DNA of 54,506 nucleotides from Bacteroidaceae bacterium (GTDB taxonomy: Bacteria; Actinomycetota; Coriobacteriia; Coriobacteriales; CADBOM01), in contig CAVFRF010000064.1 of the NCBI GenBank assembly GCA_963624975.1, positions 1 through 54,506 on the forward strand, given 5' to 3'. The stretch's first letter is position 1, and every line of letters starts with the position of its first letter. The position numbers were made by a program, and so were the translations under genes. Under the pieces are notes generated by a model. The model made no database searches. It was not told where the DNA came from and was given only the letters and a program-made list of their open reading frames with translations. Positions 1,408 through 46,846 of this stretch are shown here, one piece after another.

Positions 1408-1423
1408 GAGAAATCCTCCAAGG

Positions 1424-1459: not shown

Positions 1460-1486
1460 ATATCGCCTGACGGCTTTGGCTGAAGG

Positions 1487-2773: not shown

Positions 2774-3550
2774 ATGAAGCGCAATAGCATCAAGGTACTC
2801 GATAACGGATCCAAAGAGTACAGCGAAATCGACCTCTACAAGAAACTCAACTTTGAGTTCTTGCGTTACACAAATCTTACGCATGCGGCTGGCAAGCGCA
2901 ATCTCCCATCCCTCGTATGCAACACAAAAATTTTCCCTGACTACATTGCTTTGTCTAATCAGCCATCTCTTTTTCATAAAACCGAACTCACAGCAATTGG
3001 ATTTTGGGAATACGATATCGACTTCGATGGATTCGACGGGCTGTTCAACGCGATTTATTACAACAGGAAAGATCGTCTCGAATTCTATAAGAAGCGCTTT
3101 TCGAACGTGAAAATCTTCTTCACACCCGATTACTCTCAGTTTGGAGATGTGTCGGATATCGAATCTGATTACAGGTTGTTCAAAGATCGCGTAGTAGGAA
3201 TCTGGCTTGCCATCGAGCTCCACGCAGTGGTCATTCCATTTGTAACGGTTCCAACAATCGATAGCATGCCCTGGGCATTGAACGGTTTGGAGGATTGTTC
3301 GGTTGTTGCATTCAGCACCAAGGGCTATGTAACCGTCCCAGAAGAACGTTCAACGCTAAAAGCCATCGTTCGATGCACCGTGGATACGCTCGATCTGAAG
3401 ACGATAGTCGTATATGACGTATGTGGCTCCAACGATGCGGTCAACGACATATTCGCTTACCCGATTGAGCAAGGCATCGAGATCGTTGTACCCATGAATT
3501 CTCTCAAAGAACGCAACATTGAACGCAGGAGATTTCGCAATGCGCAGTAA
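2774..3550 (+). CDS. DUF4417-like protein (divergent paralog of 45001..45663)
   Basis: By-eye alignment to the second copy: FWEYDxxF vs FYEDDxKF, FTPDYSQF vs ISPDFSLY, YRLFKDR vs YRSRAF, VVIPFV vs PVIPNI, VVAFSTKG vs AIAVGSHG, KTIVVYD vs TTIVVYG. The start is uncertain: ATG 2774, or GTG 2726 as in the track. Confidence 0.55.
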   Translation: MKRNSIKVLDNGSKEYSEIDLYKKLNFEFLRYTNLTHAAGKRNLPSLVCNTKIFPDYIALSNQPSLFHKTELTAIGFWEYDIDFDGFDGLFNAIYYNRKDRLEFYKKRFSNVKIFFTPDYSQFGDVSDIESDYRLFKDRVVGIWLAIELHAVVIPFVTVPTIDSMPWALNGLEDCSVVAFSTKGYVTVPEERSTLKAIVRCTVDTLDLKTIVVYDVCGSNDAVNDIFAYPIEQGIEIVVPMNSLKERNIERRRFRNAQ

Positions 3551-4040
3551 CAACGGCCATCTTGCACACGGGACGACTGGAAATCCTCAAACTTCTATAG
3601 ATCAGGAATTCTATGCGTATGTCGTTCGCGATAACGAGCGCAGACTTAGGGATCTAGTATTGGACCCGATGATTGACGAGTCACTAGTAGCCGAGCTTGA
3701 ACGCTTGGAGGTAAAATTCAATCGCAAAGAAATGGTCTTCATCGCACGTGACAAAACAGGCCAGATTGTCTGGTTGGAGAATGGCACATCGAGCGCAGGG
3801 CTTACACATCTTGAGAAGCGTGGACATATAGGCGACTTGTCGAGAAAATTCTGCGTCGACGAATCGGATGTTCCCAGGCTCATTCGAAATATCGTGAGGG
3901 ATGGAAAGGTTGTCTCAAACAAACTTGTTGATCGCCATGGTCGCAAGGGATATGAACGAACCTACGAATATAGAGAACACAAGGTTGTTCTTGCCGCCAT
4001 CGGCACCAACGGTTTCTTGGTTACTATCTATCCTATTTAG
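3540..4040 (+). CDS. Toxin-like small protein (possible BECR/RelE-like RNase fold), function unknown
   Basis: ATG 3540 follows AGGAG at 8-nt spacing and overlaps the DUF4417 stop by 11 nt. The C-terminal half (IVWLENG..GLTHLEKRGHIGDL...YEYREHKVVLAAIGTNGFLVTIYPI) has the beta-rich ...VTIYP ending seen in DUF4258/BECR-type toxins. This is a by-eye judgement only. Confidence 0.45.
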   Translation: MRSNNGHLAHGTTGNPQTSIDQEFYAYVVRDNERRLRDLVLDPMIDESLVAELERLEVKFNRKEMVFIARDKTGQIVWLENGTSSAGLTHLEKRGHIGDLSRKFCVDESDVPRLIRNIVRDGKVVSNKLVDRHGRKGYERTYEYREHKVVLAAIGTNGFLVTIYPI

Positions 4041-4052
4041 AAAGGGAGCTTC

Positions 4053-4379
4053 ATGAAAACCATCAAGCTTATGCTCGATTACCTGCAAGGCCCCATATGG
4101 ATTAGTGATGTGGAAACAGGCAAGCCGATGACAGGTATCGACATTATTGACAACGATGAGCAGATCCGAGTTCTCAATTTCGAGATACAGAACGCTTATG
4201 ACTCGTATTACGAGTTTGATTCTCATGACCAAGCCTGCTGGTTCAACGAGGAGCAGGAGCGGAAAGACAAGGAACGCATGCTTGAGCTGTTTGCAAAGCT
4301 CAACAGCAGGCTCGACGAAATCAACGACGGGACATTCATTGTCGACGACCGCGAAACTCCGCGTATTCAGAAACTCTAA
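4053..4379 (+). CDS. Small acidic protein, immunity/antidote-like by position
   Basis: 108-aa ORF with AAGGGAG RBS, starting 12 nt after the previous stop. It is rich in D/E and has no recognisable domain. Confidence 0.5.
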   Translation: MKTIKLMLDYLQGPIWISDVETGKPMTGIDIIDNDEQIRVLNFEIQNAYDSYYEFDSHDQACWFNEEQERKDKERMLELFAKLNSRLDEINDGTFIVDDRETPRIQKL

Positions 4380-4528
4380 GCCTGACTCGGTAAAGACTAC
4401 TGGCTCTTCTAGACCTCTGTTTTAGATACTCCAGAGAGATGGGTAGCTTCAGAAAGAGTTGCAAGCAGAAGTCGAAGAGACTCGCCGGGTGTCGACCTGC
4501 AAGTCCACGCAATTTTCTACTTGAAGCT

Positions 4529-4747
4529 CCACCTGGGATGCCCTGCGCGGGACATACCATAACGGCTCAGGCTGGACTTTACAGCCAGAAGTCGCCGCTA
4601 TGGCACGCCCCGCACAGGGCTCCGGCGACTCAGCCATGTTCTTATTGAAGACTCTCCAGATGCCAGCGTGGGGTGTGTCCGAACGGCGACTTTTGGCCGA
4701 AGGCCAACTGAGCCGTTTGGATATACCCCACGATGGCACCCCGGTGG
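4529..4747. repeat. Long imperfect foldback element; includes repeat copy B at 4553..4665
   Basis: Complementary segments checked by hand: 4529..4542 with 4735..4747; AACGGCTCAG 4561..4570 with CTGAGCCGTT 4708..4717 (perfect); CCAGAAGTCGCCG with CGGCGACTTTTGG (1 mismatch); CACGCCCCGC with GCGTGGGGTGTG (with G-U pairs). Each arm carries its own small GC hairpin. Confidence 0.8.
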
Positions 4748-6102: not shown

Positions 6103-6831
6103 CTACAGGGCGCGAAACTCCCTGCGTAGCCGCGCCATCACGTCGAGCATCACGTAGAAGAGCGTCTCGTAGTGCATGAAGCCCAGCACGTTGCTGTCCC
6201 ACATGAACACGATCTGCGCGTCGAACTCGTCGTCGCCGTCCCAGAACTGAAACATCAGGTCGAGCCAGTCGAACAGCGGCAGCATATAGGTGAGGTCGGC
6301 ACGGGCAATCGCGGGCTGCAGCTTGCCGCCCAGATTCTCGCATGCTTGCGCGAGCTTTTCCACGTTGCCGCAGAACTCGTCGGCATACTCCTGGCTGAAC
6401 ACGCCCGGGGAAGGACTCGCCCCCACAGGCGCGAGCGTGGTGACCGTGCAGTACTGCCCGGACAGGCACGACGGCTGCAGCCCCGGCATCGCGCCTTCGT
6501 GCGTGGCGCCGGGAGCAAAGTCTTGGAAGCGGCACAGCATATCGTAGATGGTGAGCACGGGAGCCGGCTCGGTGTAGGGCACCCACTCCCCCGAAGCGCC
6601 GAGCACGTCGACCTCTGCCGTCGTGCGCGACACACGGCACTTCTCGTCCATATATGCGATGTAGAGGTAGTCGTCGTCGTGCCCGAGCCCCAGATGCCCG
6701 AAACGGTCGATCGTCTTTTGCATGTCGTATTTCACGAAGTACTGTCGGCCCTGCACCCCGAGCTTCTCGAAATTGCTCATGTCGTCGAGAATGATGTTGG
6801 CAAAGTCGTTGCTTTCCGCACAGTGCGTCAT
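6103..6831 (-). CDS. DUF3786-like protein
   Basis: Trimmed to Met at 6831, giving 242 aa. The C-terminal FWDGDDEFDAQIVFMWDSNVLGFMHYETLFYV resembles the DUF3786 signature. It overlaps the mntP stop by 4 nt. Confidence 0.65.
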   Translation of the reverse strand: MTHCAESNDFANIILDDMSNFEKLGVQGRQYFVKYDMQKTIDRFGHLGLGHDDDYLYIAYMDEKCRVSRTTAEVDVLGASGEWVPYTEPAPVLTIYDMLCRFQDFAPGATHEGAMPGLQPSCLSGQYCTVTTLAPVGASPSPGVFSQEYADEFCGNVEKLAQACENLGGKLQPAIARADLTYMLPLFDWLDLMFQFWDGDDEFDAQIVFMWDSNVLGFMHYETLFYVMLDVMARLRREFRAL

Positions 6832-7406
6832 AGAGCAAGCACCCCCAGATGTTCGAGCAGAACCTTGAGTCCGATGAGAATGAGAACAACGCCGCCAACT
6901 ATGGTCGACGCCTTCTCGTATTTGGAACCGAACCTGTTGCCGATTACCACACCTGCAAACGATATCACGAACGTGGTGCATCCGATAAGGGTGACGGTGG
7001 GTACGATGTCGACCTGCACGAGCGCGAACATGATGCCGGTGGCCAGCGCGTCGATCGACGTGGCGATGGCCAGCATGAACAGCTCCTTGATGTCGAGTTT
7101 GGGCGCATCTTCCGCGACCTCGTCTTCGTCGCCGTCGTGGAATGCGTCCCATAGCATCTTTCCGCCGATGAGCGCCAGCAAGCCAAAGGCGATCCAATGG
7201 TCGATGGGGTCGATGAGCACCTTGAGCTGCGCGCCCAAGAACCACCCGATCGTGGGCATGAGAGCCTGAAACACGCCGAAGAACAGCGCGATCACGAAAG
7301 CGTGCTTGTAGTTGACGCGCTTCATGCCCAGCCCCTTGCAGATCGAGACTGCAAACGCGTCCATGGACAGGCTCACGCCTATCAAGAGGATATCTACGAA
7401 TCCCAT
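6828..7406 (-). CDS. mntP: Manganese efflux pump MntP
   Basis: 192 aa and multi-TM. It has the duplicated SMDAFAVS / SIDALATG motifs characteristic of MntP/YebN. Confidence 0.9.
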   Translation of the reverse strand: MGFVDILLIGVSLSMDAFAVSICKGLGMKRVNYKHAFVIALFFGVFQALMPTIGWFLGAQLKVLIDPIDHWIAFGLLALIGGKMLWDAFHDGDEDEVAEDAPKLDIKELFMLAIATSIDALATGIMFALVQVDIVPTVTLIGCTTFVISFAGVVIGNRFGSKYEKASTIVGGVVLILIGLKVLLEHLGVLAL

Positions 7407-7467
7407 ACGTTCCCTTCCAAAAAGTCAGCCCGTTGCGCCGACGTTGCAAAGCTTGAATAACTCTCAT

Positions 7468-7590
7468 GGCATCTGGCTGGGTGTGTCGTCACCGGCGACT
7501 TCTGCAACGAAGCGAAGCCGAGCCGGTGGCGATGCAGCCAGCCAGATGCCCGAGTTGAGTCCCAAGGTGCCCGGCAGGGTGTGTCGTCAG
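7468..7590. repeat. Third, more divergent copy of the dispersed GC-rich structured repeat unit
   Basis: GGGTGTGTC..CGGCGACTTCTG..CGAAG..GAGCCG parallels 4671..4716. There is an internal 13-bp inverted repeat (GGCATCTGGCTGG at 7468..7480 with CCAGCCAGATGCC at 7538..7550). There is also a 12-bp direct repeat GGGTGTGTCGTC at 7479..7490 and 7577..7588. Confidence 0.7.
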
Positions 7591-8192
7591 CAGCTCTCCC
7601 CTTCCAACTTTGCCTGCAGCTTTCCGAGAGCTGCGAAGATTTTCTCGCGGTCCTCGTCTTTGTGTCCGTCGGTCCACCATTGCAAGACCATCTTGACCAG
7701 ACCACCCGACACGAACGCGGCGAACATCTCCTTGTCGATGTCGCAGAGAATCTCGCGAGCGTTGCCCGCGTTCAGCGATTCGATTACAGATTCACCGATG
7801 AAGTCGGAAAACGACCAGAGCAGATTGCCCAGCACGTTGCTCTTCAGCACGTTGTCCATAAGACCCGAGTGCTGCGACAAGAACGTCATCATCTCGTCGG
7901 CCATCATGGTCTCGCATTCATAGGAGCCCATGGGCGTGTCTCTGCCGGCCACGGCAGAACGAAACTTGTCGCGGATGCGCGCCATGTAGAACCTGAAGAA
8001 CTCGTTCTTGTCCTCGAAATGCTTGTAGAACGTGGTGCGGCGAATCATGGCCCGTTCGCACAGAAGCCCGATGGTGATCTCTTCAAAGCGCATCTCCTCC
8101 ATGAGGGTGGTAAACGCATCTGTGAGCGCCATGTAGGTTTTCTGAACGCGCAGATCCGAGGTCTGCATCTTGCCTTCGACATCAAAAGCCAT
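7587..8192 (-). CDS. TetR/AcrR-family transcriptional regulator
   Basis: N-terminal HTH with the ITIGLLCERAMIRRTTFYKHFEDK signature. The start is uncertain: Met at 8234, 8192 or 8171. Confidence 0.85.
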   Translation of the reverse strand: MAFDVEGKMQTSDLRVQKTYMALTDAFTTLMEEMRFEEITIGLLCERAMIRRTTFYKHFEDKNEFFRFYMARIRDKFRSAVAGRDTPMGSYECETMMADEMMTFLSQHSGLMDNVLKSNVLGNLLWSFSDFIGESVIESLNAGNAREILCDIDKEMFAAFVSGGLVKMVLQWWTDGHKDEDREKIFAALGKLQAKLEGESC

Positions 8193-8324
8193 GTGTCTCA
8201 GCCCGCCAATCTCATCAAAGTGAGCCGTCCCCACCGACGGCTTGCTATGACTCTATTGTAGGCGACAATAACGAACATGTGTCGCTTATTTTACAAGTGT
8301 CCACGATTGGCAGCTGGCGATTAG

Positions 8325-8825
8325 CTAGATCATATAGAAGCCCAAGATGCCGCTCAGGACTCCCAGCAGCAGGCCGCAGGCCACGTCTTTGGGGAAGTGC
8401 ACGCCGGTGAGCACTCGCACTGCGGCAAGCAGCACCGATACGGCTAGCATGATCGCACCCGGTATCGGGGTTGGCAAAGCTGTCATGAACGTCATGGAGA
8501 TTACCGAGATTGAGAACACGTGGCGGCTGGGCATCGACTTGCCCTTGGTGTTCTTGGGAATCACCGAACTGCGCCCGAACACCTCGTAGGGCCTTGGTGC
8601 GTTGATGAGCTTGCGCACCACGGTGACCAGCACGAACGATATGAACGGCACCAGCACGGCACGCAGCAAAAGCGGGCTGCCGGTGCACGCCAGCCATACC
8701 AGCAGAGACGGATATGCGACGTAGACCGCGTAGGTGATGGCCTTGTTGGCGAGCGAGATGGCCTTCGCGCAACGGGGCCTCTGCTCGAACCATTCCATCA
8801 TGGAGTCGTAGGTGCTCTTCTGCAT
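8325..8825 (-). CDS. PAP2-family phosphatase (membrane)
   Basis: 166 aa. The three PAP2 motifs are visible: KLINAPRP, PSRH, and VRVLTGVHFPKD. Confidence 0.85.
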   Translation of the reverse strand: MQKSTYDSMMEWFEQRPRCAKAISLANKAITYAVYVAYPSLLVWLACTGSPLLLRAVLVPFISFVLVTVVRKLINAPRPYEVFGRSSVIPKNTKGKSMPSRHVFSISVISMTFMTALPTPIPGAIMLAVSVLLAAVRVLTGVHFPKDVACGLLLGVLSGILGFYMI

Positions 8826-8858
8826 ACAGGCTCCCCTTGCGTGCGCGTATTGCGAATG

Positions 8859-9959
8859 CTAGTTCTGCGGAGTGTGGTGCGCGGGATAGGTCTGGCGGTC
8901 GATGCCCTTGAAGGTGTAGCCCAGCTGCTGGTAGTACTCGATGATCGAGGGCAGGGCATCCACGGTCGACTGCTTGGTGGCCGAATCGTGGCACAGCAGG
9001 ATGATGTTGTTGAGGTCCTCGTGACCTATGGAGTTGTCGATGGTATCCTGGGTCTCGATGTTGGAGCCATCGCCCGAGCTGACGTTCCAGTCGTAGTACT
9101 GGTAGCCCTTCTCGTGAACAGAATCCACCAGGCGCGACATGATGCCCTCGCAGTACTTGGCCGACACCGAGTTGGACGAGCCTCCGGGGAACCTGATATA
9201 GGCTGGCACGTAGCCGATCTGCTCCTTGACCACCTGCGCGATCTGGTCCAGGTCCTCGAAATACGCCTCGTCCGACGCATAGACCTGCTCGTAGTCGTGG
9301 GTGTAGGTGTGCATCCCCACGGTGTGGCCGCGCTTGGCCTCCTCGGCGATGAGGTAGAAGCAATCCTCGCTATGGCCCACCACGAAGAACGTTGCCTTGG
9401 CGTTGTACTTGTCGAGGATGTCGAGCACCTGAGGGGTAAGGTCGGAGGGGCCGTCATCGAAGGTGAGGTAGACGACCTTCTCGTCGGTAGCTTCGCTAGA
9501 CCCGGGAACGTTGCCCAGCTGCACGGCGTTGACGTTGTCGGATTGCGGCGTGGTGCTGGACGCAGCCTCTTTCTGGTCGGCGGCATTGCCGGTGTCTGCG
9601 CTGCCGGCATCCGTGGTGTCGGAAGCCTGCACGTTCTGCTGCCCCAGCTGAGCCTGTCCCATCGCGCCTATGGCGAACACGCCCACGAACAGCACCAGCA
9701 CTACGGCCAGCACGCCCAGAATCCTCGGGTCCATGCGACGCGTAGAAGACCGCCTGTCCGGCTCGACCCGCGTGCTCCTTCCCTTCTGCGACCCGTCGTA
9801 GTGCACGCTACGGGTGCTTTGGACCTGAGAACCCGAATTCCACTGCGGCCTTGCGCCCTGAGAATTGCGATGCCCCTGTGCATTGTATCGGCGCCCATCG
9901 CCGCTTCTGCTGCTACCGTACTCGCTATAGCGAGAATCCCTGTTGTCCCTGCCAGCCAT
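8859..9959 (-). CDS. Polysaccharide deacetylase (NodB domain) with disordered N-terminus and one TM
   Basis: NodB motifs are present: LTFDDGPS, KATFFVVG, HTVGMHTYTHD. A TM segment (ILGVLAVVLVLFVGVFAIG) follows an R/S/G-rich N-terminus. Confidence 0.88.
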   Translation of the reverse strand: MAGRDNRDSRYSEYGSSRSGDGRRYNAQGHRNSQGARPQWNSGSQVQSTRSVHYDGSQKGRSTRVEPDRRSSTRRMDPRILGVLAVVLVLFVGVFAIGAMGQAQLGQQNVQASDTTDAGSADTGNAADQKEAASSTTPQSDNVNAVQLGNVPGSSEATDEKVVYLTFDDGPSDLTPQVLDILDKYNAKATFFVVGHSEDCFYLIAEEAKRGHTVGMHTYTHDYEQVYASDEAYFEDLDQIAQVVKEQIGYVPAYIRFPGGSSNSVSAKYCEGIMSRLVDSVHEKGYQYYDWNVSSGDGSNIETQDTIDNSIGHEDLNNIILLCHDSATKQSTVDALPSIIEYYQQLGYTFKGIDRQTYPAHHTPQN

Positions 9960-10048
9960 TTTCGCCGCTCCACACGCTGTAATCTTGCAAGCTGTCCGCC
10001 CCGGCGGTCGAGCCAGGACGGACAGCGAATTGGTTCCCTATCGTTTCC

Positions 10049-11824
10049 CTACGAGCGAATCGAGATGTTGGCTTCTTTGAGCTGCCTCGGCGAAATCTCG
10101 CCGGGGGCACCCGTCATCGGATCGGAACCGCTGGAGGTCTTCGGGAACGCAATCACGTCGCGGATCGACTGGAAGCCTCCCAGCAGCATGCACACTCGGT
10201 CGAGTCCGAGCGCGATTCCTCCGTGAGGCGGCGCACCGTAGGAAAGCGCCTCGAGCAGAAAGCCGAACTTCTCCTCGATCTCTTCGTCGGAGAGTCCGAG
10301 ACGACGCAGAACCCTGCGCTGCATCTCGGGGGTATGGATACGGATGGTGCCGCCTCCGATCTCGAAGCCGTCCATCACGATATCGTACGAGTAGCTGCCG
10401 CACTCCAGCGGGGCGTCCTCGATCTTGTCCACGTCTTCGTCCTTGATGCGGGTGAAGGGGTGGTGCTCCGCGCCGTAGCGGCCTTCCTTCTCGTCGTACT
10501 TGAACATCGGGAAGTCGACCACCCACAGCAGCGCATGGCCCTTGCGCTCGATGCCCAGGAGGTCGGCGGTGTGCAGCCTGAGGGCGGAGAGCACCGCGCT
10601 TGCAACCTCGTAGGTGTCGGCGGCGAACAGCACCAGATCGCCGGGCTCCACGTTGCAGGCCTGCTTGATCTGCGCGTACATCTCGTCGTCGAAGAACTTG
10701 ATAATCGGCGACTTCTCGTCACCGCCGGACGTGAAGGCAATCCAGGCCATGCCCTTGGCGCCGTTGTCGGCTGCAACCGCGCCGAGCTTGTCGATCTCGC
10801 CACGCGACCAGTCGCCAGCACCCTTAACGTTGATGGCCTTGACCACGCCTCCGTTCTCGATGGCACCGGAGAACACCTTGAAGCCGCATCCGCGCACGAT
10901 GTCGGTGAGGTCAACCAGCTCCATGCCAAAGCGCACATCGGGACGGTCGTTGCCGAAGCGGTCCATGGAATCCTTCCAGGAGATGCGCTGCAGCGGGAAC
11001 TCGTGCTCCACGCCCACCGACTGCAGGACCTCCTGCATCACGTCTTCCATCATCTGCATCACGTCGTCTTGCGTGACGAAGCTCATCTCGATGTCGAGCT
11101 GGGTAAACTCGGGCTGGCGGTCGGCGCGCAGGTCCTCGTCCCTGAAACAGCGGGCCACCTGGTAGTAGCGCTCCACGCCGCCCACCATGAGGAGCTGCTT
11201 GAAGAGCTGCGGCGACTGCGGCAGCGCGTAGAACCTGCCCGGCGCCAGCCTGGCCGGCACGATGAAGTCGCGGGCGCCTTCGGGAGTGGACTTGCCCAGG
11301 ACGGGAGTCTCGACCTCCATGAAGCCCCTGTCGCCAAGGGCGTTGCGCATGGCGCGGGTCACGTCGGAGCGGAGCTTGAGGGCGTTGAGCACCTCGGGGC
11401 GCCTGATGTCGAGGAAGCGCCAGCGCATCCTCGTGATCTCGTCGGTGTCGATGCCGTCCTCGATGGCGAAGGGCGGGGTCTTCGACTCGCTCAGCACCTG
11501 CATCGAGGTCGCCTCGATCTCGATGGCGCCGGTGGAAAGGGAATCGTTCTCGGTGTCGTCGGGCCTGTGCCTCACCTTGCCGCCGATCAGCACGGTCCAT
11601 TCGGGCCTGATCTTCTCGGCGAGCGCGAACGCGTCGCCCGAATAGTCGGGGTCGAACGTGCACTGCACGTAGCCGCTCCTGTCACGAAGGTCGACGAAGA
11701 TAAGTCCACCATGATCGCGCCTTCTGGCAACCCATCCGGTGAGCTTGACCTCTTCGCCGATGTTATCGGTGGTGAGTTCTCCGCACGCGTACGTGTGCAT
11801 CGAGTACTTGCTGGAATCCGACAT
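10049..11824 (-). CDS. aspS: Aspartate--tRNA ligase
   Basis: 591 aa. It has an N-terminal OB fold (GWVARRRDHGGLIFVDLRD) and class II motifs (FRDEDLRADRQPEFTQLD, GGGTIRIH, GIALGLDR). Confidence 0.97.
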   Translation of the reverse strand: MSDSSKYSMHTYACGELTTDNIGEEVKLTGWVARRRDHGGLIFVDLRDRSGYVQCTFDPDYSGDAFALAEKIRPEWTVLIGGKVRHRPDDTENDSLSTGAIEIEATSMQVLSESKTPPFAIEDGIDTDEITRMRWRFLDIRRPEVLNALKLRSDVTRAMRNALGDRGFMEVETPVLGKSTPEGARDFIVPARLAPGRFYALPQSPQLFKQLLMVGGVERYYQVARCFRDEDLRADRQPEFTQLDIEMSFVTQDDVMQMMEDVMQEVLQSVGVEHEFPLQRISWKDSMDRFGNDRPDVRFGMELVDLTDIVRGCGFKVFSGAIENGGVVKAINVKGAGDWSRGEIDKLGAVAADNGAKGMAWIAFTSGGDEKSPIIKFFDDEMYAQIKQACNVEPGDLVLFAADTYEVASAVLSALRLHTADLLGIERKGHALLWVVDFPMFKYDEKEGRYGAEHHPFTRIKDEDVDKIEDAPLECGSYSYDIVMDGFEIGGGTIRIHTPEMQRRVLRRLGLSDEEIEEKFGFLLEALSYGAPPHGGIALGLDRVCMLLGGFQSIRDVIAFPKTSSGSDPMTGAPGEISPRQLKEANISIRS

Positions 11825-11867
11825 TATCCGATTCTCTCCTTATTGACTTGCTTTCCGTTCTTGAAAC

Positions 11868-11900
11868 GGGAGCCTCCGTGCATGCAGGCACGCGGCTCCC
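11868..11900 (-). other. GC-rich hairpin in the hisS-aspS spacer
   Basis: GGGAGCC..GGCTCCC encloses CGTGC..GCACG. It sits about 45 nt upstream of the aspS start, with no U-tract. The role (processing or attenuation) is unknown. Confidence 0.35.
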
Positions 11901-12032
11901 GATTGTTTCACACGTTTCGAATTATCGCACACGCAGACGGGCACGGCGCAAATTCGCACCGACGTTTGCAGCCGATGGCGAGCAAATGCGAGCAGTCCGC
12001 CGCAGAAGCGGCCTCTGGACCGCGTCCGACCA

Positions 12033-13343
12033 CTACAGCCTGCCGGAAACCTCGGCCGCAACCTCGGCGATGGCCACCTGCGCCTCTTCGTGGGTCTGCA
12101 TATCGCGAATGGTGACCTTGCCCTGCGCCAGCTCGTCGGGTCCCACTACCACGGCGAGCCTGCATCCCACCTTGTCGGCCTGCTTGAACTGCGACTTGAG
12201 CGACCTCGACTGGTGATCTTGATCTGCGCTCACTCCGGCATCGCGAAGCGCCTGCACGATGGAGAAGGCGCTGTCGTCGCAGCTGGCGTCCACCACGGCC
12301 ACGTACACGTCGCAAGCCGGGGCCTCCTCGAAGTCGATGCCGGCGGCCTGCAGTGCCAGATAGGTTCTCTCGAAGCCCAGCGCGAATCCGATGCCCGGAG
12401 TGTCCTTGCCGCCCACTGCCTGCATGAGCTTGTCGTACCTGCCGCCTCCGCCGATGGCGTTCTGCGAACCCAGACCGTCGATGACCTGCACCTCGAACAC
12501 CGTGCGGGTGTAGTAGTCGAGTCCTCTCACGAGCTTGGGATCCTCGATGTACTCGATGCCGGCAAGGTCGAGATAGCGTTTGACCGCCTCGTAGTGCTCG
12601 CGGCAGTCGTCGCAGAGGTTGTCCGAGATCTTGGGCGCAGCGTCCATGATCTGCGCGCACTTCTCGTTCTTGCAGTCGAAGGCGCGCAGCGGGTTGATGT
12701 CGGCGCGCCTGTTGCACTCCTCGCACATCTCGTCCGCATGGTCGTGGATGTAGCCGCGCACCGTCTCGCGGTAGGCCGGGCGGCACGCGTCGTCTCCCAT
12801 GGAGTTGACGAGCAGCCTCACCGACTCGCGCTTCACGCCCATCTCCTCGAAGAAGCGGATGAGCATCGCGATCATCTCGGCATCTGCCGAAGGCTCGTGG
12901 GCGCCCAGGCACTCGGCTCCGATCTGGTGGAACTGCCTTAGCCTGCCCTTCTGTGGACGCTCGCATCTGAACATCGGTCCCGCGTACATGAGCTTCACGG
13001 CTGCGCCGCCCTGCGGAACGAGGTTGTGCTCGATCGCGCAGCGCACCACGCCTGCGGTGCCCTCGGGGCGAAGCGAGAGGTTCTGCGCGTCCTTGAGCGG
13101 TATGCTCTCCGACACCTTGGCGAAAGCATCGTTGGACAGCACGTGGAACATCTCCTTGTCCACCACGTCGGTGGCCTGGCCTATGCCCCTCACGAACACG
13201 TCCTGCTGCTCGAACATCGGGGTTTCCATGAACCTGTAGCCGTACTTCGAGAATACGTTGCGAGCCGTTTCCTGCATCGACTGCCAGGCCAGCGAGTTCG
13301 CCCCCAGCAGGTCTTCTGTTCCACGAGGTGCCTTCGTTGCCAT
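12033..13343 (-). CDS. hisS: Histidine--tRNA ligase
   Basis: 436 aa. It has the class II HisRS signatures (MFRCERPQKGRLRQFHQIG, GGGRYD) and a C-terminal anticodon-binding domain. Confidence 0.97.
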   Translation of the reverse strand: MATKAPRGTEDLLGANSLAWQSMQETARNVFSKYGYRFMETPMFEQQDVFVRGIGQATDVVDKEMFHVLSNDAFAKVSESIPLKDAQNLSLRPEGTAGVVRCAIEHNLVPQGGAAVKLMYAGPMFRCERPQKGRLRQFHQIGAECLGAHEPSADAEMIAMLIRFFEEMGVKRESVRLLVNSMGDDACRPAYRETVRGYIHDHADEMCEECNRRADINPLRAFDCKNEKCAQIMDAAPKISDNLCDDCREHYEAVKRYLDLAGIEYIEDPKLVRGLDYYTRTVFEVQVIDGLGSQNAIGGGGRYDKLMQAVGGKDTPGIGFALGFERTYLALQAAGIDFEEAPACDVYVAVVDASCDDSAFSIVQALRDAGVSADQDHQSRSLKSQFKQADKVGCRLAVVVGPDELAQGKVTIRDMQTHEEAQVAIAEVAAEVSGRL

Positions 13344-41030: not shown

Positions 41031-41042
41031 GATTTGAAGGGA

Positions 41043-41360
41043 ATGCCGATGCGAGAGAAAGTCCGAAAACTTGGCAAGATCTCCATCCCGCTCGGAGAGG
41101 GAGTCCACCTCAAAGAAGGCGAGCACCCGCTCATAAGCGAACGGGTGCTCAGCTCCGCCCAGCTCGGCCAGGCGCTGAAGAGGCGCCGTCGAGAACTGGG
41201 CTACACACAGAAGACGGCTGCCGAGCTTAGCAACCACAGCGTTCGTGCTATAGGCGACATCGAGAGGGGCCGCAGCTCGGTGGGCGTTGGCATCGTGCTC
41301 GATTACGCGCTGTCGCTGGGCGTAGACCTAACGTTGTCGGTGAGGGGCAGGTCGCAATGA
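41043..41360 (+). CDS. XRE-family HTH antitoxin (HipB-like)
   Basis: HTH LGQALKRRRRELGYTQKTAAELSNHSVRAIGDIERG. The stop overlaps the hipA start (ATGA). Confidence 0.8.
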   Translation: MPMREKVRKLGKISIPLGEGVHLKEGEHPLISERVLSSAQLGQALKRRRRELGYTQKTAAELSNHSVRAIGDIERGRSSVGVGIVLDYALSLGVDLTLSVRGRSQ

Positions 41361-42643
41361 GGCTATACGTTCACAGGGAGTTCAAGGGACGCTACGAACC
41401 TGTCGGAGTCCTGCAGGACGACAGCGGCGCACCGTCGTTCTCGTACGCCGAATCATATCTGTCTTCCAACGATGCGGCACCGATATCGATAAGCCTCCCG
41501 CTCGCAAGCGAGCCTTTCGACTCGAACACGACGGCTGCGTTCTTCGACGGACTGGTGCCGGAAGGGTCGCTTCGCAGAAACCTTGCCGATGTCGCCAGAG
41601 CCGACAGACGAGACTTCCTCGCAATTCTCAATCAGGTCAGGAACGAGCCCATTGGCGCATTGGTGTTCTCTTCAGAAGCAGAGCTCACATTTCTCGATGC
41701 ATCCTATGAAGAGCTGCCGGCCAGCGAACTGAAGAACATAGCATCGATGCCGGAATCCACGGCATTGGACCTAACACTGAAGAGCAGGATCTCGCTTGCA
41801 GGCGCGCAGACGAAAATCGGGCTCTACCATTCTGGAGACGACCCTGAAGAAGGGTGGCATCTTCCCAGAGGCGGTGCCCCATCGACGCACATTCTCAAAA
41901 CATGCTCCGAGGCTTTTCCCGGAGAAACGGTCTGCGAAGCGCTGTACCTCAAGGCTGCGAAGAGAATCGATCTGCCTGCGGCAAACTGCTTTCTGATAGA
42001 GTCTGGCGCCCGAAACCCCATACTGGCCGTCGAGCGCTACGACCGCAGGTTTCCCAATGGGAACCAACGCATCATTTCAGGGCTTCCTGCACCGCTCAGG
42101 CTCCACCAGGAAGATATGTGCCAGGTGCTGGGAATTAGCTCGGGTTTGAAATACGAGGCGACGAGCACCGACTATCTCAATCTGATGTCCTTTGCCCTAA
42201 CCGGATGTTCGAGCGAGCCTACGGAGGACAGGTTCACGCTTGGCTATTTCCAGTTACTCGATTACTTGCTCGGAAATTGCGATAACCATCTCAAGAACTG
42301 GTCCATCCTCTACAGCGAAGACTGGAACGGTGCGAGGGTGGCCCCTCTCTACGATGTGGTGAACACGACGATCTATCCGCAGCTGGCGAGGGAGATGGGC
42401 GTTTCCTTCGGAGGAAGCCGGGTTGTCGACGACGTGACCGCCGATATGATCTACGAGCGCTTGGGCAATGCCGGCCTGGCTTCGTATTTCGTGAAACAGA
42501 TGTGCGCGGATATGAGAGAAGAGTTGGTACCAGCTCTCGAAGATGCGGCCAGCGAACTGGCGGAATCGGGCTTTCCGGAAGCGAAGAGCCTACTAGACGA
42601 AATCGAGCCTGGCATCAAACGCCGGCTCGAGGTAATAGCGTAG
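41357..42643 (+). CDS. hipA: HipA-family serine/threonine kinase toxin
   Basis: 428 aa. N-terminal coupling domain (FSYAESYL...PISISLPL, FFDGLVPEG), then LAGAQTKIGL and the catalytic NCDNHLKNWSILY. Confidence 0.88.
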   Translation: MRLYVHREFKGRYEPVGVLQDDSGAPSFSYAESYLSSNDAAPISISLPLASEPFDSNTTAAFFDGLVPEGSLRRNLADVARADRRDFLAILNQVRNEPIGALVFSSEAELTFLDASYEELPASELKNIASMPESTALDLTLKSRISLAGAQTKIGLYHSGDDPEEGWHLPRGGAPSTHILKTCSEAFPGETVCEALYLKAAKRIDLPAANCFLIESGARNPILAVERYDRRFPNGNQRIISGLPAPLRLHQEDMCQVLGISSGLKYEATSTDYLNLMSFALTGCSSEPTEDRFTLGYFQLLDYLLGNCDNHLKNWSILYSEDWNGARVAPLYDVVNTTIYPQLAREMGVSFGGSRVVDDVTADMIYERLGNAGLASYFVKQMCADMREELVPALEDAASELAESGFPEAKSLLDEIEPGIKRRLEVIA

Positions 42644-42696: not shown

Positions 42697-43227
42697 CTAC
42701 TCCTCAGGAGCTTCCAGCTTCACCACTCGCACCGGGGTGCCGTGCTCTTCCAGCAGCTTCAGCAGATCCGCCATGCGGATTCGCACCGATGCCGTGTTGT
42801 CGCATGGATGGCAGCCGATGAACTCGCGCGCCGCGCTCTCCTCGTCCAAGATGAACTGCACCTCGCAAGCCGCGTCGTTGAGCGCTCCCAGCGGATTGAC
42901 CGCTCCGGGGTACAACCCGAGCTTGGCAGCGAGATCCTTCTCGGAGGCGAACTGGAGCTTGCGCGAATCGAGCGCCTGCTGGATGCCCTTGAGTGGCACG
43001 CGCTTGTGGTCGGGCATCGACACCAGGTAGTAGTTGCGCTTCTTGTCGTCGCGCAGAAACAGGTTCTTCACCACGTCGTCCGCAAACCACAGGTCGAACC
43101 CGTCCAGGTCGTCCACCGTGAGCGCCGCTGGATGCTCGACGATCTCGTACTCCATCCCATGCTCGTCGAGTATCGCCAGCACGTCTTCCTTGGTGAGCGG
43201 GTTCGCCTGCTCAATCGTCTCAGCCAT
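42697..43227 (-). CDS. YbaK/ProX-type aminoacyl-tRNA deacylase domain protein
   Basis: Trimmed to MAETIEQ, giving 176 aa. KNLFLRDDKKRNYYLV and GAVNPLG are typical of prolyl-tRNA-synthetase-associated editing domains. Confidence 0.8.
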   Translation of the reverse strand: MAETIEQANPLTKEDVLAILDEHGMEYEIVEHPAALTVDDLDGFDLWFADDVVKNLFLRDDKKRNYYLVSMPDHKRVPLKGIQQALDSRKLQFASEKDLAAKLGLYPGAVNPLGALNDAACEVQFILDEESAAREFIGCHPCDNTASVRIRMADLLKLLEEHGTPVRVVKLEAPEE

Positions 43228-43334
43228 CTTATCGCCTCCGAAATTCGGCATTCGCAAAAAAATCACACGGCCAAGATGATACCAGCCCGCCCGCTACAGT
43301 CTCGCACTTTTTCAACAAGTTGAAGAAGAGTTGA

Positions 43335-43370
43335 CAAGCTCGTTGTTGCCCCGGTCGCGTGCAACGTTTA
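43335..43370. repeat. Left copy of a perfect 36-bp direct repeat
   Basis: CAAGCTCGTTGTTGCCCCGGTCGCGTGCAACGTTTA is identical at 43335..43370 and 46616..46651. Confidence 0.95.
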
Positions 43371-43382
43371 CCACGAGACCGA

Positions 43383-43691
43383 TCATCGGCTATGGCTTTT
43401 TTGAAACTTGGCAAATGCGCCTGCCGCATCCTGCACGTTGCCTGCGGCGTAATCATCGTATCCCCGCTGGATTTTGCCGTGAATCTGTTCTTCGGTCATT
43501 TTTGAAGCATCAATGCTTTCGGGAGCTTTGGGAATAGTTACCGGAAATGGGATCCCTCCTACGAGCACCACTTGGGTCAAAAACATATCGACGGCTGTGG
43601 ACATCGGTATTCCGAGTCTCCCCAGAACGTTTTCTGCATCGTGCTTCAATGTCGGGTTGATCCTCAAATTGAGTGTTGCAGATTTATCCAT
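43383..43691 (-). CDS. RelB/DinJ-family antitoxin, with no cognate toxin adjacent
   Basis: N-terminal ribbon-helix-helix LNLRINPTLKHDAENVLGRLGIPMSTAVDMFLTQV. The stop lies 12 nt from the 36-bp repeat. Confidence 0.8.
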   Translation of the reverse strand: MDKSATLNLRINPTLKHDAENVLGRLGIPMSTAVDMFLTQVVLVGGIPFPVTIPKAPESIDASKMTEEQIHGKIQRGYDDYAAGNVQDAAGAFAKFQKSHSR

Positions 43692-43805
43692 TCTTATCGC
43701 CTCCAGTCAATAAGCAGTATCGAAAACTCAGAAAACGATGACTTGCTTATAGTTCCATATCAAATAAGCAAAGGTTAGCTCATGAAATACCGTTCGGTAA
43801 TTGTA

Positions 43806-43856
43806 TTGACATTTTTTGTCGCCAAGGTAAAATGCCAACTGGTAATTTGATTACCA
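43806..43856 (+). promoter_or_regulatory. Promoter plus 17-bp palindromic operator upstream of the XRE gene
   Basis: TTGACA (43806..43811), a 16-nt spacer, TAAAAT (43828..43833), then the palindrome TGGTAATTTGATTACCA (43840..43856). Confidence 0.6.
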
Positions 43857-43875
43857 TACCACTGAAAGGAAAAAC

Positions 43876-44181
43876 ATGGAGTTGGGAAAAAGAATTCAGG
43901 AGCTCTTAGATGCTCGCAATATGAGTAGGAAGGAACTCGCGGATGCGACTGGACTGACTGAAGCGGCGATAAGCAGGTATATCACAGGTACCCGGATGCC
44001 AAAGTCCATCAGTCTCAGCGCTATCGCCAAGGCCCTAGATGTCACGTCTGACGAGCTGCTCGGTAACGTTAACGACACAATAGACGAAGTGGACGACGCT
44101 ATCAGGCTGGTAGCCCGCAACGCGGGAAGTATTACCAAAGAGCAGAAGAAATACCTCATCAATGCCCTCATCGGAGACTAG
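43876..44181 (+). CDS. XRE-family HTH regulator
   Basis: 101 aa. HTH LGKRIQELLDARNMSRKELADATGLTEAAISRYITGTRMP. Confidence 0.88.
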   Translation: MELGKRIQELLDARNMSRKELADATGLTEAAISRYITGTRMPKSISLSAIAKALDVTSDELLGNVNDTIDEVDDAIRLVARNAGSITKEQKKYLINALIGD

Positions 44182-44190
44182 GAGGATAGC

Positions 44191-44763
44191 TTGTACCTGG
44201 AACCCTCTAGATACGAGGAGCTAAACCGTGAGGTTGCCGACCTCATAGAGACATACGATGCGTGCGCGTACCCTTTGGACGTATTCGCTTTGGCGGGTAG
44301 GATGGGTATCGTGTTGAGATCATACTCGTCAATCCCCTTTACAGAGCGTTCAGCATTCCAGAACATCTCCAAAGACGCGTTCACCATCGCGTCTGGCGAG
44401 TACGAGGTGGACACGACATTCATTTGTTACAACCAAAACATGAACGGCGGCAGGCTGAGACAGAGCATCGCCCACGAAATCGCTCACATCTGGTTGGAGC
44501 ACCCAAACGACAAGGATCCCTTTGAGACCGAAGCCGAATACTTCGCTGCATATCTTCTAGCGCCCATACCCCTCATTATCAAATTAAGGCTAGCGAGCGT
44601 ATTGGAGGTTAAAGAGCGTTTCGGCGTAAGCTTCGAGGCCGCAAGAATCTCCCTCGAGCGAGCTGGTAACAGATGCCGATGCGGCAAGGCGGGATTTGAA
44701 TACGAGTACGGGATCATCAACATGTACAACCTGAAAGGAGGTGGTTGCCTTGAAATCGCCTAG
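44191..44763 (+). CDS. ImmA/IrrE-family zinc metallopeptidase
   Basis: TTG start with GGAGGA upstream. HEXXH motif HEIAHIWLEH followed by EAEYFAAYLLAP, the typical DUF955/ImmA layout. It is paired with the upstream XRE gene. Confidence 0.85.
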   Translation: MYLEPSRYEELNREVADLIETYDACAYPLDVFALAGRMGIVLRSYSSIPFTERSAFQNISKDAFTIASGEYEVDTTFICYNQNMNGGRLRQSIAHEIAHIWLEHPNDKDPFETEAEYFAAYLLAPIPLIIKLRLASVLEVKERFGVSFEAARISLERAGNRCRCGKAGFEYEYGIINMYNLKGGGCLEIA

Positions 44764-45000
44764 CAAAAAGCGGCCGCCGGAATTGGCGTTCCAGCGACCG
44801 CGGGCGGTATGGCACGCCATACCTAGTGCAACGAGTATTGTGCCATGCCGTCCGTCGATATCGATTGCAATTCAGAAGAAATCCGACGGAAGGATACGGT
44901 GTTCCAATGGTCCAATACCATCACGTTTGTAAGTTCGTCTTAGCTCTGCATTTCGGTGTGGGTAGTACGCATCTTGCTTCTCTGAGGGGAGGTGAGTAGT

Positions 45001-45663
45001 ATGACCAAGGAAAATTACAAACGCAGCGGATGTGTTGACGTGTTCAGGTCTTATCTCGTCAAAGACGCAACATTCGCCGGTGAGCTTGAGATTCCTACAC
45101 TGAAGCCTGTCGACCTGCTGCCCGGCGAAATGAAACCCTTTTCGCAGGCCATTTCCTCTAGGAAGAGGCATATCTGGGTCCACTTCTACGAGGACGATGC
45201 GAAGTTCGAGCGCATCTGGAACAATCCAAAGCGGTACCTGAAAATGCTGGGAGAGTTCGACGGAGTAATATCTCCCGATTTCAGCCTGTATAGGGATATG
45301 CCACTTGTCATGCAGTACTGGAACATTTACAGGTCGAGGGCATTCGCTCATGCGCTGCAGTCAGCTGGCGTACCCGTCATCCCCAACATTCGCTTCGGGG
45401 ATTCTAGAACATGGGAAGCATGTTGCCTTGGAATCCCCGTCAACTCTGCCATCGCCGTTGGAAGTCATGGCAATCTGAAGAACGCCGAAGACCGCCGACA
45501 TTTCACGGCTGGCCTCGACTATGTTGTCAAGGCGGTGCGACCGACAACCATCGTTGTATATGGAGCTGCGCCAGATTCGATATTTGGCGTATACATCAAG
45601 CAAAGTATTCGGGTCGCCTCATTTACGAGCGAATTCGCTAGCTCTCGCGAAACGAGCGCATAA
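45001..45663 (+). CDS. DUF4417 domain protein
   Basis: ATG 45001 sits 8 nt after GGGGAGG. WVHFYEDDAKFERIWNNPKRYL...GVISPDFSLYRDMPLVMQYWNIYRSRAF...GVPVIPNIRFGD matches my recollection of the DUF4417 consensus. Confidence 0.75.
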   Translation: MTKENYKRSGCVDVFRSYLVKDATFAGELEIPTLKPVDLLPGEMKPFSQAISSRKRHIWVHFYEDDAKFERIWNNPKRYLKMLGEFDGVISPDFSLYRDMPLVMQYWNIYRSRAFAHALQSAGVPVIPNIRFGDSRTWEACCLGIPVNSAIAVGSHGNLKNAEDRRHFTAGLDYVVKAVRPTTIVVYGAAPDSIFGVYIKQSIRVASFTSEFASSRETSA

Positions 45664-46157
45664 TGGGTGGCGGTTATCATGGTGGCTTCGGAGCCACCTC
45701 CGGCAGTGTCGCAATGGGCGATGCTACTTTCATGGAAAGATCCGATCAGTTTCTCAGATACATCCGCAAACGATCTGATGTTGACCCTGGCGGGAAATTT
45801 GACATTATTGCGCATGGAACCGCCCAAAACATGCAGATAGAGCACAACGGGAAGAAGATACTGGTCAACTCTCGCACTGCTGCGAATATGATCAAGAGGA
45901 TTCCAGACTATAAGGGGCAAAGCATAAGACTTCTTTCCTGCAGCACCGGATCGAGAAATGCTGGCTTTGCCCAAAACCTTGCAAATAAACTTGGCGTGAC
46001 AGTCTATGCCCCTAACGATAAATTGTGGGCATATAGCGATGGAAGCCACATTATCGCCCCCGTCAGCTCCATTCCAGACAAATACGGCAATCCTCAGCCC
46101 GACACCAGCCGTCTTGGAAAATTTGTAAAATATACCCCGGGAGGTAACAAACGATGA
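45663..46157 (+). CDS. Unknown 164-aa protein with His...Cys dyad pattern (clan-CD/CPD/DUF4347-like, by eye)
   Basis: The start overlaps the DUF4417 stop (TAATG). The N-terminus is Gly-rich. FDIIAHGT and, about 45 aa later, IRLLSCSTGS each follow hydrophobic strands. This is followed by FAQNLANKLGVTVYAP. Confidence 0.6.
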   Translation: MGGGYHGGFGATSGSVAMGDATFMERSDQFLRYIRKRSDVDPGGKFDIIAHGTAQNMQIEHNGKKILVNSRTAANMIKRIPDYKGQSIRLLSCSTGSRNAGFAQNLANKLGVTVYAPNDKLWAYSDGSHIIAPVSSIPDKYGNPQPDTSRLGKFVKYTPGGNKR

Positions 46158-46504
46158 ACTGCCCAAAATGTAACAGCTCAACTATTTCTAAAATCGAAGG
46201 CTCCACTTTGATAATCAAATGCACAGAATGCGAGTGGTCGGTTGCAACGAGCTATGTTGACCCGATCTACGAAGACGAGACCGTTTATATCGTTCGGGTT
46301 GGTCAGGTTCTCGACCCTAACAAAGAGCAGCTCAAAGCCGTCTCTTCTGTAGCCGGAGTTAACTTCATCGCTGCAAAGAAAACCTTGGAAACCCCGGGTG
46401 CAACTTTGATTGAAGGTCTTGCTCCAGAGATTAAAGAAAGCGTAGCGAAGCTTTCTAAATCAAATGTCGCCATCACCATCGAACCTGAGTATCCCTATCT
46501 CTAA
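46154..46504 (+). CDS. Zinc-ribbon protein with an L7/L12-CTD-like C-terminal half (immunity/antidote-like by position)
   Basis: ATGA overlap with the upstream gene, and GGGAGG RBS. CPKC..(14)..CTEC forms the zinc ribbon. The C-terminal KEQLKAVSSVAGVNFIAAKKTLETPGATLIEG resembles the ribosomal L7/L12 C-terminal domain pattern. Confidence 0.6.
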   Translation: MNCPKCNSSTISKIEGSTLIIKCTECEWSVATSYVDPIYEDETVYIVRVGQVLDPNKEQLKAVSSVAGVNFIAAKKTLETPGATLIEGLAPEIKESVAKLSKSNVAITIEPEYPYL

Positions 46505-46615
46505 ACGGCGGTAGGCTCACCAAACGTCACGGCCAGCAAGCGAACCACAGCGTCAAGAGCTACCAGATCCTTCGTCCACAGGCGCGCGCGAGAAATCTCG
46601 ATCCGACAATATGCG

Positions 46616-46651
46616 CAAGCTCGTTGTTGCCCCGGTCGCGTGCAACGTTTA
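46616..46651. repeat. Right copy of the perfect 36-bp direct repeat
   Basis: Identical to 43335..43370. Confidence 0.95.
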
Positions 46652-46846
46652 ACATATCGCTTTGGCTAGACTCGCTTGTTTTCGACTAGCATATAGAAGG
46701 TTTGTCGGACGTTTACACGTTTGCGCGTTTGCGCGTTTGCGCGCCAAAGCGTTCGCGCATCGAAGCGTCGGATGCCCGGCGGCCTGCAGGAAAGGGTCGG
46801 CTTGCCATGCCAACGGCGGGCCGCAAGGAGAAAAGAGAAAGAGACG

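Follow-up and report, generated by a model that had tools for sequence, protein, structure and literature searches.

The contig of 54,506 nucleotides analysed here (CAVFRF010000064.1; the window) belongs to an Eggerthellaceae-like gut actinobacterium, whose MetQ protein finds its closest match carrying an organism name in Ellagibacter isourolithinifaciens (72-73% identity). Our subject is an island of low G+C content situated between two core genes of this contig. On its left lies ybaK, a minus-strand gene for a YbaK/ProX-type aminoacyl-tRNA editing protein (42697..43227; Pfam tRNA_edit, 3.5e-26), and on its right metQ, the plus-strand gene for the NlpA lipoprotein (46847..47695; Pfam Lipoprotein_9, 5.2e-88) of the MetQNI transporter (metQNI, 46847-49212). 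The island is bounded by two copies of the 36-nt sequence CAAGCTCGTTGTTGCCCCGGTCGCGTGCAACGTTTA, placed as direct repeats on the plus strand. The left copy (43335..43370), the presumptive attL core, falls in the upstream region of ybaK and includes the dyad CGTTG-N16-CAACG; the right copy (46616..46651), the presumptive attR core, ends 195 nt upstream of the metQ start. As reported in a preliminary description of this DNA, the copies are exact, with no mismatch between them. Identity in the window ceases precisely at 36 nt (ttgaCAAGC versus gcgCAAGC on the left, TTTAcc versus TTTAac on the right). A search of the window at up to three mismatches gave no third copy, and 100 shuffled versions of the window gave no match to the 36-mer (0 expected by chance). 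The possibility of a common dispersed repeat, also raised at the outset, was rejected: only two copies occur in the window, and exact searches with the 26-nt core of the repeat found nothing in three public collections (185,579 GTDB species genomes, IMG/VR and the JGI metagenomes), from which the species of the window is seemingly absent.

The interior of the island (43371-46615) measures 3,245 nt, making a whole unit of 3.28 kb. Its G+C content, 0.499, is lower than the 0.607 of the window as a whole and than the values of the flanks (left 0.58, right 0.633). The compositional shift noticed originally is thus real, but its coincidence with the repeats is not exact, since the change appears gradual when composition is calculated in 300-nt windows. 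The non-coding stretch of 111 nt that abuts the right repeat (46505..46615) is G+C-rich, as first described (0.595 by our measurement), and differs by one single-nucleotide polymorphism (SNP) in strain L001 (see below). This stretch possibly represents an arm of a former attP; it shows no similarity to any locus fetched from outside the species of the window. In an excised circle, the hypothetical attP junction would read atatgcgCAAGC...TTTAccacga, the counterpart at attB being gagttgCAAGC...TTTAacatat. The attP junction is spanned by a minus-strand frame that resembles an open reading frame (ORF) and is unsupported as a gene. The inner ends of the island, ccacgagaccg... and ...cgacaatatgcg, do not form inverted repeats. 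No tRNA gene is present in the window, nor does any Rfam family match it at gathering score, and the interval 43200-46900 yields no match even at E<=1. Integration into a tRNA or tmRNA gene or into a riboswitch was therefore rejected. For the same reason, what had been called the metQNI leader does lie upstream of metQ but is not a known riboswitch or leader RNA.

The island contains six ORFs. Nearest to the left repeat, a minus-strand gene (43383..43691) whose stop codon is located 12 nt from the repeat encodes an antitoxin of the RelB/DinJ family (Pfam RelB, 1.5e-9; TIGR02384 RelB_DinJ, 9.9e-18). The ORF list includes no RelE/ParE-type toxin downstream of it; the antitoxin is an orphan and does not constitute a RelBE type II toxin-antitoxin pair. 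The other genes are all on the plus strand. A sigma-70-like promoter identified by a promoter scan (TTGACA-16-TAAAAT, 11/12 positions; 43806..43833) precedes the gene for a 101-aa XRE-type helix-turn-helix (HTH) repressor of the ImmR/CapH-like kind (43876..44181; Pfam HTH_3, 2.5e-14; PADLOC capH, 3.8e-12; phrog_8, transcriptional regulator). Next to it is the gene for a 190-aa M78 zinc metallopeptidase of the ImmA/IrrE/CapP-like kind (44191..44763; Pfam Peptidase_M78, 1.8e-13; PADLOC capP, 7e-12), in which the HExxH motif reads HEIAH (residues 95-99). A spacer of 237 nt (44764..45000), conserved with other cassettes and containing a hairpin with a 13-bp stem (44770-44801), separates this regulator pair from an operon beginning with the gene for a 220-aa DUF4417 protein (45001..45663; Pfam DUF4417, 2.7e-63). 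The following gene (45663..46157) specifies a 164-aa protein. Alignment of 17 homologues uncovered an invariant MGxGxxGGFGxTxG N-terminus along with D..HG and IRLxSCxTG motifs, a pattern that suggests a Cys-His enzyme. The protein has no match in Pfam, NCBIfam or PADLOC, a profile search of PDB sequences found nothing, and its single-sequence structure model was too poor to use (predicted local distance difference test score, pLDDT, 55). The last gene (46154..46504) encodes a 116-aa zinc-ribbon protein with an N-terminal CxxC...CxxC and, C-terminally, a domain that terminates in P(D/E)(F/Y)PY. It gave no family match above cut-off in Pfam or NCBIfam and none in PADLOC; it co-occurs with the 164-aa protein in seven other loci. 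By PADLOC, the DUF4417, 164-aa and 116-aa proteins match no known defence system.

HTH/M78 pairs de-repress excision genes belonging to prophages and to integrative and conjugative elements (ICEs), or immune operons, in response to DNA damage, the peptidase cleaving the repressor (10.1101/2022.04.27.489752). The arrangement found here, an XRE-type HTH gene and an M78 HExxH peptidase gene upstream of a cargo operon, is shared with ImmR/ImmA of ICEBs1 and phage phi105, with CapH/CapP and with DdrO/IrrE of Deinococcus, and the adjacent HTH and HExxH peptidase genes typical of CapH/CapP immune operons are both present. By analogy, the pair probably de-represses the downstream operon upon DNA damage. 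We infer that the cargo is an uncharacterised, probably damage-induced conflict or defence module. Some differences should be mentioned. The capP match of the 190-aa peptidase is confined to positions 7-148 of the 242-position profile. The C-terminal GAF domain of CapP, which is involved in sensing single-stranded DNA and comes with a cysteine-switch loop, is thus absent, and the peptidase is closer to the short ImmA type. Also unlike CapH/CapP immune operons, the DUF4417 operon is no described defence system and the regulator pair is co-directional with it, across the conserved spacer of ~230 nt.

None of the six ORFs matched an integrase, a transposase, a relaxase or a type IV secretion system component in any of the four profile libraries used (Pfam, PHROGs, PADLOC and NCBIfam), in agreement with the absence of such genes initially reported. 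PHROG matches within the island were to regulators, a metalloprotease and DUF4417-type proteins only. A recombinase gene would not fit into any of the non-coding gaps, which measure 184, 237 and 111 nt. Recombinase families were equally without match in the remainder of the contig, which consists of housekeeping genes (aspS, hisS, gatB, clpB, the dnaK operon, transporters). These findings fit the original suggestion that the element either requires a recombinase in trans or is a decayed remnant. At the DNA level, the island matched nothing in a phage collection of 50,697 records or in a plasmid collection. Lacking integrase, replication, packaging and structural genes as well as any phage DNA match, it does not qualify as a prophage or phage satellite. 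A transposon or insertion sequence was rejected on the grounds that there is no transposase, that there are no terminal inverted repeats and that the repeat is too long for a target duplication; to our knowledge, 36 nt exceeds any known transposase target-site duplication.

Exact-protein look-ups with YbaK, MetQ, RelB and the 116-aa protein retrieved about a dozen contigs of the same species, originating from several samples and assemblers. Most of these contigs carry the island and both repeats, and the look-ups with RelB and the 116-aa protein placed the island exclusively at the ybaK-metQ locus of this species. Among the data sets in which the island is present are ERZ27314044, ERZ27279234, SRR8978442 and SRR11880811. 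One contig of 1,552 nt (L030; ena:ERZ27314057:k141_50204) has the structure ybaK ... gagttgCAAGCTCGTTGTTGCCCCGGTCGCGTGCAACGTTTAacatatcgc ... metQ, with a single 36-mer and no island. The distance from start codon to start codon of the two genes in this contig, 338 nt, is exactly what remains of the window distance once the island and a single repeat are subtracted. Thus, the empty site whose existence had been anticipated between ybaK and metQ was found, with the predicted spacing. A false join in this contig is unlikely, since a unitig cannot cross the repeat node unless the island branches have been pruned; such pruning would in turn imply that most cells in that sample are without the island.

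Tabulation of SNPs distinguished three island-bearing lineages. The window type has the 36-nt repeat. In the L001 type, the flanks diverge from the window by 0.84% (145 SNPs in 17,219 nt) and the island by 0.34% (11 in 3,245 nt), while the lack of A43334 extends the repeat to 37 nt. The third type, represented by L027 and L028, carries a T43360C change in the left repeat only and a G44476T change in the M78 gene. By the latter change, the codon for the catalytic Glu of HEIAH becomes a stop codon, leaving a 95-aa product. Presumably this mutation renders the repressor uncleavable, so that the DUF4417 operon would remain silent; judging from the sequence, the island is decaying in this lineage. 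Its presence in three lineages, each with SNPs of its own, indicates that the island has been inherited vertically for some time. The flanks of the empty contig L030 display the SNPs of the L001 lineage (43334del, 46730, 46733, 46867) plus two private ones. Since the empty allele is nested within the diversity of island-bearing strains, a secondary, precise loss is the most economical explanation; import of an empty allele by recombination would be a conceivable alternative. A Logan contig of 3,311 nt (L033), which extends from the start of the repeat to 30 nt into the right repeat, was considered as a candidate excised circle and rejected, because a de Bruijn graph with k=31 gives the same result for a linear segment flanked by repeats.

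The same intergenic region is occupied in the closest other species, a sister species whose YbaK and MetQ are 86% and 90% identical to those of the window (ybaK DNA, 83%). Two contigs of this species, both from the same two samples, overlap by ~139 nt (L120 on the metQ side, L010 on the ybaK side) and reconstruct an island of 3,041 nt (47% G+C) between the same two genes. The island encodes an HTH protein, an M78 peptidase, three small proteins and a DUF4417 protein, and no integrase; all of its genes face ybaK, opposite to the orientation in the window. Identity to the window counterparts is only 36% for the HTH protein, 29% for the M78 peptidase and 26% for the DUF4417 protein. Low identity and opposite orientation identify the sister island as a separate acquisition. 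It is bounded by a perfect 12-nt direct repeat, CGTTGTTGCCCC, which is the core of the window 36-mer; beyond it, a degenerate stretch leads to a CAACG at a distance of 15-16 nt. The site can be written CGTTG-N16-CAACG in the two species alike, the arms CGTTGTTGCCCC and CAACGTTTA being conserved and the centre different. Upstream of metQ, three species, the third with a different synteny, have conserved the right end of the repeat with the adjoining flank, AACGTTTAACATAT, which identifies the 36-mer as a host-derived sequence. As the window repeats are identical while ybaK DNA is 83% identical between the species, the window insertion must be younger than the species split. By these alignments, the ybaK-metQ intergenic site has been hit at least twice.

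Relatives of the DUF4417 protein number more than 1,300. The nearest ones (66-77% identical) are encoded in HTH-M78-DUF4417-164aa-133/116aa cassettes at other chromosomal sites. DNA similarity to two such cassettes (L019 and L023) is limited to positions 43785-45697 (77% identity in the case of L019), the relB side and the repeat-proximal ends being specific to the window island. In L019 the cassette (DUF4417 77% identical) lies between repeated guaA 3' ends, with no integrase. Three copies of the guaA 3' end (7841-7856, 8473-8488 and 12140-12155, within 7825-12155) delimit two tandem integrase-less islets; one consists of a DUF4160/DUF2442-like gene pair that imitates the end of guaA in its final codons, and the other holds the HTH-M78-DUF4417-164aa-133aa cassette. 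The third-closest cassette (L023/L040, CAVCDT010000013.1; DUF4417 72% identical) comes from a bin that bears the name Akkermansia muciniphila. This assignment may be wrong, because the other closest cassettes are in metagenome contigs and the flanks of L019 have 60-68% G+C.

A survey was made of 80 loci (L040-L119) in GTDB species genomes, mostly of rumen and gut Clostridia, with DUF4417 proteins of 51-59% identity (72% in one case). The HTH-M78 pair directly precedes the DUF4417 gene in about half of these loci, and the spacer between the M78 and DUF4417 genes measures ~200-350 nt in most. The gene pairs downstream of DUF4417 are interchangeable (164+116, 164+133 or 173+108 aa, DUF6883+190 aa, and others), a situation reminiscent of toxin-immunity or effector modules. 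Among 118 neighbour genes from 32 DUF4417 loci, no integrase or phage family stood out. Two loci of the survey, both of Clostridia/Erysipelotrichales, have long perfect direct repeats. In L069 (8450-12554) repeats of 321 nt surround the DUF4417 module, and in L116 (Allobaculum stercoricanis; 6694-12153) repeats of 147 nt duplicate the 3' part of rmlD; the latter element also contains a transposase of the IS110 family.

A second low-G+C islet with a DUF4417 gene, likewise devoid of a recombinase, occupies the left end of the window itself (1-4670; 45-53% G+C). Its direct repeats, 92% identical over at least 118 nt (1-118 and 4553-4670), are incompletely represented, the left copy being cut by the start of the contig. 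The islet comprises, on the minus strand, genes for a Dcm-type methylase (148-1407) and an EcoO109I-like restriction enzyme (1487-2260), followed by genes for a divergent DUF4417 protein (2726-3550) and for a pair of 173-aa and 108-aa proteins (3519-4379). The same pair follows DUF4417 in many Clostridia loci.

Cis-mobilizable elements (CIMEs) are defined by the retention of attL and attR and the absence of integration and transfer genes (PMC6323972, PMC5704250). The window island falls under this definition, as it has kept its attL/attR repeats and has no recombinase in cis: an att identity segment of 36/37 nt is shared by both ends, mobility genes are missing and attB is found in single copy in L030. 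We propose, with a probability that we set at roughly 0.6, that the 3.28-kb unit is a CIME-like islet inserted most probably by a tyrosine recombinase acting in trans. According to this proposal, a circle carrying a 36/37-bp attP identical to the attB of the ybaK-metQ intergenic region would recombine with attB. The catalyst would most probably be a tyrosine recombinase, performing conservative site-specific recombination and encoded on a helper ICE, integrative and mobilizable element (IME) or prophage. The resulting attL and attR would each keep one copy of the repeat, so that both flanking genes would retain their upstream sequence. The reverse reaction, or else RecA-dependent recombination or slippage across the repeats, would excise the island precisely and leave one copy, as in the strain with the empty site. 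The precise ends, the single-copy empty site, the reuse of the core by unrelated cargo in either orientation and the long repeat together make up a signature of site-specific recombination. An identity segment of 36 bp fits the att sites of tyrosine recombinases, unlike those of large serine integrases or the target duplications produced by transposases. The attL/attR interpretation put forward in the preliminary description is thus supported by the empty site, the reuse of the site and the lack of dispersed copies. We infer that a site-specific enzyme, rather than RecA, was responsible; its type, the existence of a circular intermediate, and how the cargo is regulated and functions are likewise deduced.

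Several observations weigh against the proposal of a recombinase acting in trans. No cognate integrase was identified in the 54.5-kb contig, and no circular (attP) junction was seen in the contigs examined. The empty site is known from one metagenomic contig of 1.55 kb. Nothing in the island can be recognised as left over from the backbone of an ICE, an IME or a phage, so that decay from a larger element is at most a possibility; the only hints of backbone loss are the location of a toxinless antitoxin gene 12 nt from attL and the 111-nt G+C-rich stretch at attR. RecA-dependent recombination across 36 bp would yield the same products. Lastly, 30 of the 32 related DUF4417 loci from Clostridia have no flanking repeats beyond chance and the other two have repeats of 147 and 321 nt. 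A distribution in which repeats are mostly missing and twice very long is more like the outcome of homologous than of site-specific recombination.

These last points lead to the alternative that a circle sharing a short host-derived segment entered the chromosome by a Campbell-type, RecA-dependent single crossover, and can be lost in like manner, without recombinase or att site. We regard this, the principal rival, as unlikely. Direct repeats and a single-copy empty site are the products expected from either reaction; no integrase was found anywhere in the vicinity, and the repeats of related islets vary in length, from at least 118 nt at 92% identity in the second islet of the window to 147 nt in L116 and 321 nt in L069. 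In the sister species, however, the perfect repeat has only 12 nt. While 36 nt is at the lower limit for efficient RecA recombination, 12 nt is below it. Moreover, two unrelated islands abut the same 12-nt core in two species, which argues for a recognised site over chance homology, and an element relying on homology would have had to gain the host 36-mer first. A chance repeat or an assembly artefact, in which case the low-G+C segment would merely be a variable region, can practically be dismissed. Beyond the general possibility, the argument for it is that several contigs break inside the repeat, whereas none of the 100 shuffles produced a match and both copies recur in assemblies made independently, with two assemblers, from several samples.

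The missing integrase would also be explained if the island resembled the integrative mobile elements exploiting Xer recombination (IMEXs) and relied on the XerC/XerD recombinases of its host, acting at a dif-like site. IMEXs lack an integrase and are flanked by repeated sites (PMC5357621, PMC4246890), and the island, which has repeated sites at its ends but encodes no recombinase, resembles in this CTXphi, TLCphi, the gonococcal genetic island and the pdif modules of Acinetobacter. Two pieces resembling the arms of Escherichia coli dif, ACAATATGCGCA (46606-46617) and TTTAACATA (46647-46655), do occur near the right repeat, but in the wrong order and ~30 nt apart, and no ATAA-N6-TTAT core is present in or beside the repeat. 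Nor is there any sign of a replication terminus: over the 54.5 kb visible, the cumulative GC skew has no turning point at 43-47 kb. Furthermore, TTTAACATA is retained upstream of metQ in spite of differences in the neighbourhood, so that a role in the metQ promoter or operator fits it better than dif. The repeat is thus not dif-like, the identification of the island as an IMEX was rejected and Xer-mediated insertion appears very improbable. We are even more doubtful that HTH-M78-DUF4417 is an autonomous mini-element in which DUF4417, alone or with partners, acts as a new damage-induced site-specific recombinase in the "int" position. The repressor-peptidase-X order beside an att site does recall the immR-immA-int order of ICEBs1, at least six integrase-less, repeat-flanked islets with the domain are at hand (two in the window and one each in the sister species, L019, L069 and L116), and two distantly related modules share one site in the window and sister species. 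If such an activity were real, it would explain both this shared att core and the occurrence of repeat-flanked modules without an integrase. Against it, the AlphaFold model of DUF4417, a confident one (pLDDT 88.5), does not match the fold of any recombinase, transposase or nuclease. Comparison with solved structures gave no match at E<0.01 (best E 0.01), and a weak similarity was to phage TGT/DpdA-type TIM barrels (E 1.5e-3); fold searches thus give DUF4417 no structural support as a recombinase. Also, many phages have the domain (507 records, for the most part from mycobacteriophages and streptococcal phages; PMC8066415), and they would not require it for integration. The lack of flanking repeats at 30 of 32 related loci and the wide variation of target sites and repeat lengths point in the same direction.

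Returning to the CIME-like islet, its closest parallels are CIME19258 and CIMEL3catR3 of Streptococcus thermophilus, found beside ICESt1/ICESt3, which have att repeats and no integrase, relaxase or transfer genes. Presence of the S. thermophilus CIMEs varies among strains, as does that of the window island, and one att site serves different elements in both cases. Tandem accretion is paralleled by the related cassettes at the guaA 3' end of L019. The window island departs from these CIMEs in that it has no known cognate ICE or integrase and no backbone remnant, in its size of only 3.3 kb and, with respect to CIMEs located at gene 3' ends, in the intergenic position of its att site between ybaK and metQ; its host, too, is different, an uncultured Eggerthellaceae-like actinobacterium. 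There is likewise a resemblance to defence-island hot spots, where one slot between core genes receives different low-G+C cassettes across species and stays empty in some strains. The cargo, which combines an antitoxin and a regulator pair responsive to stress with downstream gene pairs that vary, has the look of a conflict system and conforms to this picture. Unlike at such hot spots, the repeat fixes the boundaries to the nucleotide, which speaks for a specific att site rather than exchange through flanking homology.

The element type is therefore already known, and the principles of genomic islands are unchanged. What the locus offers is a set of occupied, empty and differently occupied alleles of an integrase-less islet, resolved to the base at one position in a poorly studied lineage of gut actinobacteria. 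The intergenic att site of 12-36 bp can be used to seek the cognate recombinase. DUF4417 modules, widespread in rumen and gut Clostridia and present twice in this 54-kb contig, are recurrently linked to islets that have flanking repeats but no integrase. The module may reasonably be regarded as a candidate for a hitherto undescribed system of defence or toxin immunity induced by stress; if it is one, DUF4417 would acquire a testable role.

Some further observations concern the surroundings of the island. A HipB/HipA toxin-antitoxin pair (41034-42643; 55-60% G+C) adjoins ybaK in the window. In the sister species no HipB/HipA is found there, ybaK being followed by mgsA-alaS-ruvX-mltG; thus, the neighbourhood of ybaK is variable on both sides. 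Upstream of metQ, three tandem copies of CGTTTGCG (46717-46744) form a tract that is polymorphic between strains: L027 and L029 contain an insertion of 8 nt, CGTTCGCA, and L001, L028 and L030 differ by two SNPs. A more distant relative (L122-L125; MetQ 83% identical) has a tRNA-Arg(CCG)-like gene between ppx-ppk and metQ, ~150-230 nt upstream of metQ, that shares no sequence with the window repeat. The tRNA gene is followed by a AACGTTTAACATAT ... TTTTCGACTAGCATAT element, which is also found downstream of the right repeat in the window and is probably a metQ promoter or operator. Elsewhere in the window, a patch of 47% G+C (32010-33091) contains paralogous ORFs of ~100 aa, three in tandem, which share 29-38% identity among themselves, have no family match and look like an array of immunity-type genes. 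Just upstream of them lies a 26-nt inverted repeat with 96% complementarity (31701-31726 and 31857-31882).

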